Shown: positions 1,947 through 47,783 of the stretch, one piece after another
Position numbering within the stretch: the first letter of the stretch is position 1
Layout: each line of letters begins with the position of its first letter
DNA from: Escherichia coli
Lineage (GTDB): Bacteria > Pseudomonadota > Gammaproteobacteria > Enterobacterales > Enterobacteriaceae
Direction: 5' to 3' (one strand)
NCBI RefSeq assembly: GCF_050920415.1
Contig: NZ_CP169309.1
DNA length: 64,000 nt
Position numbers and translations under genes: made by a program
The notes under the pieces: generated by a model
Told to the model about the DNA's origin: nothing
Seen by the model: only the letters and a program-made list of their open reading frames with translations
The model's database searches: none

Positions 1947-2396
1947 TCAGGCTTTTACCTGCTGGTAACGGCTGACTTTAAACAGTCGGCGGCAATAATC
2001 GAGGAAGTAGCCATAAACCGCCCCCATCAACATCGAAACAACGATGTTTGAACTGACCGCCGCCATAATCTGATGCCAGTCTGCGCCCACCACTAACAAG
2101 ATCGCCACATACACCGGTGACTGGAACGTCACATACGCCAGGATATCCGCCAGATTTTTTACCCAGCCCGACGGACTAACTTTGCGTGCCGCACGCATAA
2201 ACAGATCGCGGTACATACCGTATGGCCATGCAATTAAGATGTTCACCGGAATCGCTACCAATCTGGAATAAAGAGACTGTTCGAAGCTCATTCCGGAGAG
2301 GAAAACTTCAATACACATGTTCACGACAGAACAGTAAACAACCATCGCGAACGTATCTGCAACTGCATGACGCAAGCGTGACTGCGGTGAGAACAT
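1947..2396 (-). CDS. alaE: L-alanine exporter AlaE
   Basis: 149-aa hydrophobic [43 protein letters not shown]... recognised as AlaE (YgaW). Confidence 0.9.
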
Positions 2397-3062
2397 GCTA
2401 ATGCTCCTTAATAAAAGCGTAATGGGACGTTAATAGAGATGAAAGCAGTGGATCTCATTGCCATCTGCATTTTCGCATAGCGTATATCGCTGGCTATGAC
2501 TAATCAATTAGTGAAAAATTTTTATTTAATCTGTTTTTGTAGATAAAATATTCCGTAGCGGCGCGTTTTTTGTACATTGTGGATTTTTACATGCTGATAT
2601 GATTTATTTTTAATTAAATCAATTAGATATGCACGTATCTTTATTTTCACTAATGAAAGTTTGGGGGTGAGGTAACGCTATAAGCGTAGAGAGTTCGGTG
2701 TATGCAGTGACTGGGTCATTTTCAGCATTTTTTATGCCAGACAATGTACATTAACAGCAGAAAGCACCAGTGAGTGATGTTTATTTTTATTCGTATATAT
2801 TGCATTTTTATTCGATTTGGTTTTATCAGGCTTGCGGAATTAGCGAGCAGAGAGCGCCGCTCTGTTCACCAATAACCGAAATTACTCATCAAATTGGCTA
2901 ATATATAATCTTGAAATTATTCTGAGAGTTTCAGAAAATAACAGCTGAAATAATCTCGTGCAGGACTGTAAATAGATTAAATTTTGTGGAAATATAATAA
3001 GTGATCGCTTACACTACGCGACGAAATACTTTTTGTTTTGGCGTTAAAAGGTTTCCTTTATT

Positions 3063-3467
3063 ATGTCCGTAATGTTACAAAGTCTAAATAACATTCGCAC
3101 TCTCCGTGCGATGGCTCGCGAATTCTCCATTGACGTTCTTGAAGAAATGCTCGAAAAATTCAGGGTTGTCACTAAAGAAAGACGTGAAGAAGAAGAACAG
3201 CAGCAGCGTGAACTGGCAGAGCGCCAGGAAAAAATTAGTACCTGGCTGGAGCTGATGAAAGCTGACGGAATTAACCCGGAAGAGTTATTGGGTAATAGCT
3301 CTGCTGCTGCACCACGCGCTGGTAAAAAACGCCAGCCGCGTCCGGCAAAATATAAATTCACCGATGTTAACGGTGAAACTAAAACCTGGACCGGTCAGGG
3401 CCGTACACCGAAGCCAATCGCTCAGGCGCTGGCAGAAGGTAAATCTCTCGACGATTTCCTGATCTAA
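3063..3467 (+). CDS. stpA: H-NS paralogue, nucleoid-associated protein StpA
   Basis: 134-aa [39 protein letters not shown]... with C-terminal [12 protein letters not shown]-binding motif; preceded by a ~660-bp AT-rich regulatory region (2400-3060). Confidence 0.95.
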
Positions 3468-3513: not shown

Positions 3514-4038
3514 TCAAGCTTGTTGGTTCCACGGCATCTTATCTAACAACCTTGCCATCCCACAAAAACCGCTAATTCCTGCAAACAGTAACCCGGCACC
3601 AACAAAGCCACTTAATAAGAAGAAACCACTATTTACGGTATAACCCAGTACAACGCCGATTAATATTAAACCACCCGCGGCGATCTGCACCTGGCGCATT
3701 AACGGCAAGGGTTGAGACTTATTTACCGCAACTGGCAATCCTGCTTTTTTCCAGCCATCAATCCCATCTTCGAGTAAAAAGATTTCTGCGGGTGCGGCAA
3801 TCGCTGCTAATTTATCGGCGTTATTACTGGTGCGTTTACCTGCCTGGCAGTGGAAGATAATTTGCTCACGACGTAATTTAGCCGGAAGACCTGACTGTTC
3901 GAGCACAGATAATGGAGCCAAATCTGCTTCAGGAATATGTTCACGAAGATATTCATCAGCATCACGAATATCGATTAACTTTGCGCCGCGTGCGATTAAT
4001 TCTTGTGCATCATGCGGCGAAATGGTTGTCAAAGCCAT
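3514..4038 (-). CDS. ygaP: Membrane-anchored rhodanese-domain thiosulfate sulfurtransferase YgaP
   Basis: 174-aa ORF with rhodanese active-site region ([12 protein letters not shown]) and C-terminal two-helix membrane anchor. Confidence 0.9.
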
Positions 4039-46128: not shown

Positions 46129-46573
46129 ACTGCAGAAGGTGGACGACTGGCTGAGTGCTTTGCTGGCGAATCTGGAACCAGCCGCAAGAAGCCGAATGAT
46201 GCGCCAGCTGGCGCAGGAACTGCGCCGGACACAGCAGCAGAATATCAGGATGCAGCGCAATCCAGATGGCAGCAGTTATGAGCCGCGCAGGGTAACAGCA
46301 CGCAGCAAGAAGGGGCGCATCAAACGTCAGATGTTTGCAAAGCTGCGCACCACAAAATACCTGAGAACTGCCGCCAGCGCGGATTCTGCCAGCGTACAGT
46401 TTGAAGGTAAGGTACAGCGTATTGCCCGTGTTCATCACTACGGTCTGCGCGATCGCGTCAGTCCAAAGGGGGGAGTCATTAAGTATCCATCCCGAAAATT
46501 GCTGGGTTTAAATGAACATACTGAAAATGAAGTAAGAGATTTACTTTTAAAGTATTTATTGATGAAAAATTAG
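46121..46573 (+). CDS. S: Tail completion protein (P2 gpS-like)
   Basis: 150-aa ORF overlapping R by 8 nt. Confidence 0.8.
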   Translation: MAELQKVDDWLSALLANLEPAARSRMMRQLAQELRRTQQQNIRMQRNPDGSSYEPRRVTARSKKGRIKRQMFAKLRTTKYLRTAASADSASVQFEGKVQRIARVHHYGLRDRVSPKGGVIKYPSRKLLGLNEHTENEVRDLLLKYLLMKN

Positions 46574-46578
46574 AATGT

Positions 46579-47109
46579 TTACGCTCTTAATAAACTTAAA
46601 TAACTTTTTATGCTTTGGCAAAAAGGGAAAAGGTCTATTTTAATTTTCCAGTTTTTTTTGTTTTGAACCCCAGAAGCAATAATAGAACCGTCCCAATATT
46701 TTATTCCATTTTTGCCGGTCTTTTTTGTTAACTCAAAACTTAATGCGTGAATAATTTTATTGCAGCATTCGCGTATAGAATCTTTAACATGACCATCTAT
46801 AACAAAAAGTATATTTTCATGTTCTTCAAATGCTTCTTTCTCAGGTGAGTAATCTGGGTTCCACTCATGTTCACTAGTGTCTTGGAGAATTCGTAGTTTT
46901 GTACAAAGGCTAATAAGATTGTTGCTAATGGTATATTCCAACCATCCGTTGTACGATAACTCCTCCATTTCAAATTCAGTTACTATAGAACCATCATATA
47001 CTTTCTGTGTGGAATATATACGCTGTAAATAAAATTCAGATGAACAGCATAATTGCTCAATTATTCTTGCGTGTTCTTCTATAGCGTAATAATCAATTGG
47101 ATGGCTCAT
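46579..47109 (-). CDS. Hypothetical protein, AT-rich cargo gene in the P2 orf30 position (between S and V, opposite strand)
   Basis: 176 aa from Met preceded by AAAGGT RBS (ORF-track start at 47148 would overlap gene V); strongly AT-biased. Confidence 0.55.
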   Translation of the reverse strand: MSHPIDYYAIEEHARIIEQLCCSSEFYLQRIYSTQKVYDGSIVTEFEMEELSYNGWLEYTISNNLISLCTKLRILQDTSEHEWNPDYSPEKEAFEEHENILFVIDGHVKDSIRECCNKIIHALSFELTKKTGKNGIKYWDGSIIASGVQNKKNWKIKIDLFPFCQSIKSYLSLLRA

Positions 47110-47204
47110 TCTTTTACCTTTCTTTGATTGGAATTGTATTTGTGTCATTTACCACACAAGGACGTATTGATGCCATAGATTCAAGGTCCGTGCAACCTAA
47201 CCCT

Positions 47205-47783
47205 ATGAACGCACAACTAACCGAAATCATGCGCCTTATCACCAACCTGATCCGCACTGGTGTAGTCACCGAAGTGGACCGGGAAAACTGGCTTTGCCGG
47301 GTTAAAACGGGCGAGCTTGAAACCAACTGGATCAGCTGGCTGACGCTGCGTGCCGGGAATGCCCGCACATGGTGGCGACCATCGGAAGGTGAGCAGGTGG
47401 TGCTGCTGAGTCTGGGCGGCAATCTGGAAACTGCCTTTGCGCTGCCCGCTGTCTATTCGAATCAGTTCGCACCACCGTCGACGTCGGCAGACGCCTGCGT
47501 GACAGAACATCCTGACGGCGGCTGGTTTGAATACGAACCCACTACCGGGCGCTGGTATGTCAGGGGCATCAAATCAATGGTCATTGAGGCCGCTGACAAC
47601 ATCACCATGAAAACCAGTGAGTTTGTACTGGAGGCTGACCGCACGCGCATTAACAGCGAAGTGGTGATCAATGGTGGCGTTACCCAGGGCGGCGGAGCGA
47701 TGAGTTCTAACGGGATCGTGGTTGATGCGCATCAGCATACTGACGTCCTGAAAGGCGGCGACACAACCGGAGGCCCGGTATGA
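47205..47783 (+). CDS. V: Baseplate spike protein (P2 gpV-like)
   Basis: Start at MNAQLTEIMRLITNLIRTGVVTEVDRENWLCRVKTGELETNWISWLTLRAGNARTWW... matches the gpV N-terminal pattern. Confidence 0.85.
   Translation: MNAQLTEIMRLITNLIRTGVVTEVDRENWLCRVKTGELETNWISWLTLRAGNARTWWRPSEGEQVVLLSLGGNLETAFALPAVYSNQFAPPSTSADACVTEHPDGGWFEYEPTTGRWYVRGIKSMVIEAADNITMKTSEFVLEADRTRINSEVVINGGVTQGGGAMSSNGIVVDAHQHTDVLKGGDTTGGPV

Follow-up and report, generated by a model that had tools for sequence, protein, structure and literature searches.

The 666-bp spacer between the divergent genes alaE and stpA of Escherichia coli is very probably a compound regulatory region that serves both genes, with three constrained modules set in AT-rich filler and no unannotated gene among them. 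We examined this spacer as part of a window of 64 kb (the whole stretch of DNA that was analyzed), which is E. coli chromosome in reverse-complemented orientation relative to K-12 MG1655 (2.796 to 2.802 Mb). Binding of Lrp, H-NS, RNA polymerase, and ArgR at the alaE/stpA spacer is already known; what is mildly new here is a base-level map of constraint together with the indel behavior of the ArgR module. The features on which the argument draws are collected in Table 1.

Table 1. Features of the alaE/stpA locus (window coordinates; predicted features are marked as such)
Feature	Position	Strand	Description or basis
alaE (ygaW), L-alanine exporter	1947-2396	-	149-aa ORF, 98.7 to 99.3% identical to annotated AlaE (K-12, other E. 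coli)
Divergent alaE/stpA spacer	2397-3062	none	666 bp, noncoding, 34% GC
alaE Shine-Dalgarno sequence AAGGAG	2404-2409	-	CTCCTT invariant in 44/44 aligned spacers
alaE-proximal regulatory module	2477-2636	-	Alignment of 44 spacers; strongest at 2477-2556
Lrp-consensus-like 15-mer TAGCGTATATCGCTG	2478-2492	none	YAG...CTR ends
Left AT-rich filler, fast-evolving	2557-2715	none	Unalignable across genera, polymorphic in E. coli
Central semiconserved module	2716-2816	none	Realignment of 23 long-type spacers; found only in spacers of at least 619 bp
Tandem ARG boxes, candidate ArgR operator	2778-2795 and 2799-2816	none	3 bp apart
Right fast-evolving filler	2817-2876	none	Contains GC-richer palindrome AGAGCGCCGCTCT
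stpA upstream region	2877-2992	+	7 E. coli alleles vary at 0 to 2 sites in every 40 bp
Predicted stpA -10 hexamer TATAAT	2993-2998	+	Conserved in Escherichia, Salmonella, and Citrobacter
Predicted stpA 5' UTR, ~58 nt	3004-3062	+	Conserved AAAAGGTTTT block
stpA	3063-3467	+	134-aa ORF, 100% identical to annotated StpA WP_000115383.1
ygaP, carrying the distal Lrp peak bridged to the spacer	3514-4038	-	Literature (PMC10127797)

The original prediction had described a noncoding, AT-rich gap of about 660 bp between alaE and stpA, and this description was borne out. The spacer has a K-12 counterpart of 668 bp, at 2,798,496 to 2,799,163 of U00096.3, and the GC content of the spacer in the window is 34.2%, compared with 49.7% over the whole 64-kb window; just 4.6% of the 666-bp stretches in the window are equally AT-rich. 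Of the 34 spacers annotated across 50 kb of K-12, it ranks second in length and is the longest once a prophage/tRNA island is set aside. The A/T tracts of the spacer, which had been called curved-DNA-like, were indeed enriched, with 20 runs of at least four A's or four T's compared to 14.2 ± 2.5 in dinucleotide shuffles (P of ~0.016). AA/TT phasing at periods of 9.5 to 12 bp, in contrast, had a power no different from the shuffle level (P of ~0.2). Because the 10- to 11-bp phasing of AA/TT expected of intrinsically curved DNA did not rise above that of the shuffles, the curvature is not demonstrated. Three other AT-rich islands of the window (12603 to 18331, 24971 to 27030, and 46316 to 47309) have 666-bp GC minima (0.287, 0.294, and 0.311, respectively) below the value for the alaE/stpA spacer and are likely to be further H-NS-type or acquired regions.

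Species-representative genomes were scanned with a degenerate stpA pattern, which returned 63 loci, 43 of them with alaE as the divergent neighbor. The alaE-spacer-stpA layout was present in Escherichia, Salmonella, Citrobacter, Enterobacter, and Lelliottia and also in Leclercia, Pseudocitrobacter, Mangrovibacter, and Huaxiibacter, and throughout the 43 species (~10 enterobacterial genera) the spacer was 487 to 767 bp long, with a GC content of 31 to 40%. The cross-genus alignment comprised 44 spacers, 23 of a long type (at least 619 bp) and 21 of a short type (487 to 557 bp). The conserved sequence falls into three modules, namely, an alaE-proximal module, a central module (which emerged when the long-type spacers were realigned), and the stpA promoter and leader. 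The distribution of variation within E. coli was uneven as well: 7 alleles had 74 variable sites in the spacer, 58 of which fell within 2557 to 2876, and the segments at 2437 to 2556 and 2877 to 3062 were almost without variation. The left filler overlaps the weakly conserved tail (2557 to 2636) of the alaE-proximal module. The palindrome in the right filler, at approximately 2851 to 2863, is GC-rich amid AT-rich DNA; it is the same in K-12 and is not conserved in E. albertii or more distant species.

The spacer is present as a single copy in 5,419 of 5,426 complete E. coli genomes, and none of the copies is on a plasmid. The particular allele of the window is rare: 96 of the 5,419 genomes carry a spacer at least 95% identical to it, and 5,321 carry one that is 90 to 95% identical. 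Strain 2020CK-00188 is one of three genomes with a 100% identical spacer, and its flanks are just 99.1% identical to those of the window. The closest E. coli genomes (L002, L067, L069, and L071) cease to be collinear with the window at ~1026, between nrdH and ygaM. In 2020CK-00188, O157 Al Ain, ST80, and 2013C-4282, a gene for a pyridoxal phosphate (PLP)-dependent aminotransferase adjoins ygaM, and in 2020CK-00188 a carboxymuconolactone decarboxylase gene lies past the aminotransferase gene. In the window and in K-12, ygaM leads directly to nrdH, with no aminotransferase gene between them.

The alaE-proximal module is the first of the three constrained parts. Its strongest block (2477 to 2556) holds TAGnnTATnTnnCTG, CAAnTAG, an invariant TTTTTATTT, and TTTTGTnnAnAAAAT; beyond 2556, conservation fades, reaching AAATCA at 2617 to 2623 within a tail that extends to 2636. 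Just 5 sites between 2437 and 2556 varied among the 7 E. coli alleles. In each of the 44 sequences, the 15-mer at 2478 to 2492 agreed with the Lrp SELEX consensus YAGHAWATTWTDCTR at 11 to 13 positions, and its YAG and CTR ends were invariant. In E. coli, more TAG triplets are found at 2509 and 2540, that is, 31 and 62 bp from the 15-mer, and a spacing of ~31 bp is typical for Lrp arrays. Cross-genus conservation reflected a 31-bp periodicity weakly (autocorrelation of 0.18), and the total number of matches to the Lrp consensus in the whole spacer was not above that of dinucleotide shuffles. Since the match counts for both Lrp and H-NS did not exceed those of shuffles, consensus counting is uninformative in such AT-rich DNA; with motif counts and tract phasing at shuffle level, Lrp and H-NS binding here rests on the literature. 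A sigma-54 promoter for alaE was also considered and was rejected, as its spacing was unsuitable.

Ihara et al. reportedly observed, in 2017, an Lrp footprint from -161 to -83 and found that induction needed 240, not 180, upstream nucleotides. If these positions are numbered from the ATG, the footprint corresponds to 2479 to 2557 and the 240- and 180-nt limits correspond to 2636 and 2576, respectively. On that numbering, both the footprint and the 240-nt fragment presumably coincide closely with the conserved alaE-proximal block. Induction of alaE by L-alanine or L-leucine requires Lrp, as confirmed in PMC6801825, which cites Ihara et al. 2017. A separate study described two Lrp ChIP(-seq) peaks at the alaE/stpA locus and a dependence of PalaE-lacZ activity on Lrp and leucine; it also visualized DNA bridging by Lrp at the locus using AFM, with the spacer joined to a site in ygaP, and removal of the Lrp peak inside ygaP lowered Lrp-mediated activation of stpA more than 5-fold (PMC10127797).

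On the stpA side, the sequence from 2877 to 2992 is alignable within Escherichia only, the last few bases excepted. This stpA upstream region includes a second Lrp-like 15-mer at 2910 to 2924 (12 of 15 matches) and a weak promoter-like match at 2911 to 2939. The predicted -10 hexamer of stpA sits within a conserved TGGAAATATAAT (2987 to 2998). The hexamer is perfect. The -35 element is poor, which fits a promoter that depends on an activator, and for this reason our promoter scan missed the conserved TATAAT. As judged from the sequence, transcription of stpA would start at about 3003 to 3007, equivalent to K-12 2,798,551 to 2,798,555, and that of alaE would start no more than ~100 nt from its ATG. 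The Shine-Dalgarno sequence of stpA, AAAAGG, is at 3046 to 3051, and both AATAC and GCGTTAAAAGGTTTT (which includes the Shine-Dalgarno sequence) are also conserved near stpA. Two promoters predicted by Shimada et al. in 2014, one far upstream of stpA (TTTACA-17-TTTAAT, 2586 to 2614) and one for alaE (approximately 2625 to 2653), were not adopted as the main promoters because they are located in poorly conserved sequence. Term-seq data (Adams et al. 2021) place the stpA terminator at K-12 2,798,048; the same data contain a minus-strand 3' end inside the stpA ORF, at K-12 2,798,243 (window position ~3315).

The region had also been likened to the regulatory DNA that is bound by H-NS and StpA. 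This is supported by the literature (PMC3946193, PMC4668568, PMC10127797), though not by motif counts. Genomic SELEX identified an H-NS site in the stpA/alaE spacer, as well as a site for the RpoD holoenzyme (Shimada et al. 2014, PMC3946193). As summarized in PMC4668568, H-NS silences transcription of stpA, which depends on Lrp for its activation. In our analysis, the number of H-NS motif matches in the spacer was below the shuffle mean, and the top match to the high-affinity motif TCGATAAATT, at 2540 to 2549, reached 8 of 10 positions. Salmonella and Citrobacter have a 9-of-10 match, TCGATAAAAT, at the equivalent position. H-NS binding at the spacer is supported, then, by composition and by the literature, without a specific site.

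The central module has at its right end two palindromic ARG boxes, TGTTTATTTTTATTCGTA-tat-ATTGCATTTTTATTCGAT. A canonical ArgR operator consists of two 18-bp ARG boxes with 2 to 3 bp between them. When scored against two copies of WNTGAATWWWWATTCANW, the segment from 2778 to 2816, equivalent to about K-12 2,798,742 to 2,798,780, reached 27 of 32 (13 and 14 for the two boxes, of 16 each). This was the top tandem ARG-box score in the 64-kb window, the next best being 24 despite the presence of several other AT-rich islands, and none of 200 dinucleotide shuffles of the spacer scored 27. The register of the boxes was identical in all 23 long-type spacers, which had a median score of 24 of 32 compared with 17 to 18 at random positions, and it was kept in Escherichia, Salmonella, Citrobacter, Enterobacter, Lelliottia, Leclercia, Pseudocitrobacter, and Mangrovibacter. 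ChIP-exo has been applied to ArgR before: Cho et al. (2015, PMC4381063) list ygaW as one of four new ArgR loci that were confirmed by EMSA. The published peak upstream of ygaW probably corresponds to the tandem boxes at 2778 to 2816. No report of a regulatory effect of ArgR or arginine on alaE or stpA was found in the literature.

The 21 short-type spacers all lacked the central module, with its ARG boxes. In Leclercia, a clean indel of 125 bp that takes out the ARG-box module separates two spacers that are nearly identical (L063 and L037), and two E. asburiae genomes (L014 and L056) also differ by this module, through a larger deletion; over the two pairs, the indel spans 125 to 140 bp. Since the module is lacking from the short spacers and from one member of each indel pair, the length class of a spacer corresponds to whether the module is present or absent; since about half of the species are without it, the module is dispensable. 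In the Leclercia pair, divergence is far higher over the 70 bp left of the indel than in other spacer sequence, which suggests a recombination tract. Two motifs to the left of the ARG boxes in the central module, CAGCAT-N5/6-ATGC (2722 to 2738) and AGCAKAAAG (2756 to 2764), are semiconserved in Escherichia, Salmonella, Citrobacter, and Pseudocitrobacter; these motifs (2720 to 2764) could represent a region of residual ArgR contact, a site for another factor, or a weak promoter.

Formally, these patterns could also arise if only the promoter-proximal parts of the spacer were functional and the middle, including the ARG-like boxes, drifted neutrally, with its AT-richness due to mutation bias and its transcription factor-like matches inconsequential. 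From its K-12 counterpart, the spacer has diverged by 5.3%, close to the synonymous rate in the genes on either side, and in every E. coli pair compared the spacer was 2 to 2.5 times more divergent than its flanks. Moreover, roughly half of the species do without 130 to 200 bp of the middle, close relatives are separated by clean indels, and transcription factor sites detected by ChIP are often transcriptionally inert. However, neutral drift of the middle is difficult to reconcile with ARG boxes that hold their register and an above-background score over eight genera while their surroundings are unalignable, or with the binding of ArgR upstream of ygaW both in vivo and in vitro (PMC4381063). 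In addition, the spacer was never shorter than 487 bp among the species compared. We consider it improbable that function is restricted to the promoter-proximal parts.

The spacer had further been thought capable of hiding small RNAs or small proteins, and this idea gained no support. A search of Rfam at an E value of ≤10 gave no match inside the spacer and a single, chance-level match elsewhere. No intrinsic terminator was predicted in the spacer, and a consensus scan found 3 promoter-like sites where 2.8 were expected; such promoter-like sequences are common in AT-rich, H-NS-bound DNA, a circumstance that would favor a hidden transcript. Folding of 100-nt windows on both strands yielded no z-score below -2.3, and RNAalifold found zero consensus pairs in both putative leaders across 43 to 44 species. 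None of the 18 ORFs of at least 10 codons in the spacer was intact across all six Escherichia-clade sequences, and the spacer ORFs had no matches in Pfam or NCBIfam. There is no annotated feature in the spacer in K-12 or in 40 sampled RefSeq (PGAP) E. coli genomes, the 3' ends that Adams et al. 2021 list from Term-seq include none within the spacer (K-12 2,798,5xx to 2,799,0xx), and a search of the open-access literature did not find an sRNA candidate flanked by ygaW/alaE and stpA.

The most specific candidate for a hidden gene was a 20-codon minus-strand ORF, from 2470 to 2408, which both E. coli and E. albertii keep intact. It begins where the alaE leader may start, and its stop codon overlaps the ribosome-binding site of alaE. 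As an upstream ORF encoding a leader peptide it was rejected, being without a Shine-Dalgarno sequence, without an attenuator, and confined to these two species (it is absent in E. whittamii, in E1V33, and in all other genera). Taken with the results presented above, this makes an unannotated sRNA or small-protein gene in the spacer very unlikely. The spacer is a known, ordinary multiregulator region and needs no new gene annotation.

An origin of the AT-rich spacer by horizontal acquisition, or from a decayed gene or mobile element, is scarcely credible: acquired DNA typically has a low GC content and the central module does act as an indel, but the spacer is single copy and never plasmid borne in E. 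coli, the order alaE-spacer-stpA is identical in all genera sampled, the spacer ORFs have no protein-family similarity, and the ends of the indel, inspected by eye, show neither terminal inverted repeats nor a target-site duplication and resemble those of a deletion between short direct repeats.

We favor a compound regulatory region common to alaE and stpA and suggest that it could operate as follows. Beside alaE, an array of Lrp sites would allow Lrp to activate alaE when L-alanine or L-leucine is available. The sigma-70 promoter of stpA would depend on an activator and give rise to a short, unstructured leader; this promoter would be activated by Lrp bound on the spacer and bridged to a second Lrp site within ygaP, and it would be silenced by H-NS (and StpA) polymerizing over the AT-rich DNA. 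Hexameric ArgR would occupy the central pair of ARG boxes, ~190 to 230 bp upstream of the predicted stpA start site. ArgR bends DNA by 70 to 90 degrees, and we infer that a bend of this kind might pass arginine status from afar into the Lrp/H-NS nucleoprotein architecture. The role of ArgR would then be architectural, via the bend, rather than one of occlusion, and would resemble that at gltBDF. H-NS/StpA filaments may use the filler as a substrate, or the filler may reflect mere drift.

The upstream region of E. coli gltBDF is said, after Paul et al. in BMC Microbiol in 2007, to combine an Lrp array with IHF and with ArgR bound far upstream. The alaE/stpA region resembles it in having an Lrp-activated promoter, ArgR on ARG boxes 200 to 350 bp upstream of the start, and an amino-acid-responsive target. 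Because an ArgR site at this gltBDF-like distance is too far away for promoter occlusion, an architectural role is implied. Unlike gltBDF, the alaE/stpA region serves two divergent genes, adds silencing by H-NS, and is bridged by Lrp to an intragenic site in ygaP. Likenesses also exist to the H-NS-controlled regions of proU, bgl, and hns, which are likewise AT-rich with A/T tracts: the spacer has an H-NS SELEX site, H-NS represses the downstream gene (here, stpA), and the sequence evolves fast while its composition is retained. The alaE/stpA spacer differs from these regions in that its H-NS motif matches do not exceed 8 of 10 and its A-tract phasing is not significant, and it differs from H-NS-silenced promoters in that the locus belongs to the core genome and is not horizontally acquired. 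With ilvIH, dadAX, and pap, the region shares several Lrp-like sites ~30 to 31 bp apart upstream of a weak promoter, switching that depends on leucine or alanine as coregulator, double ChIP peaks, and bridging. It departs from those three in that one site (2478 to 2492) is clearly consensus-like and invariant and in that the cross-genus 31-bp signal is weak.

The alaE/stpA spacer is thus a well-documented, shared, divergent control region where Lrp, H-NS/StpA, and ArgR converge. A possible though doubtful extension is that the ARG-box module of ~100 to 125 bp is a discrete, evolutionarily labile unit through which StpA and/or AlaE, under the control of Lrp and H-NS, would also respond to arginine status, by way of an ArgR-induced bend ~200 bp upstream of the stpA start. 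The module occurs in E. coli, in Salmonella, and in part of Citrobacter, Enterobacter, Lelliottia, and Leclercia, and close relatives cleanly lack it. If this extension is true, the length polymorphism of the spacer would represent one regulatory input gained or lost. The constraint map itself is little beyond bookkeeping, and it may guide a test of the effect of arginine on StpA/AlaE expression.
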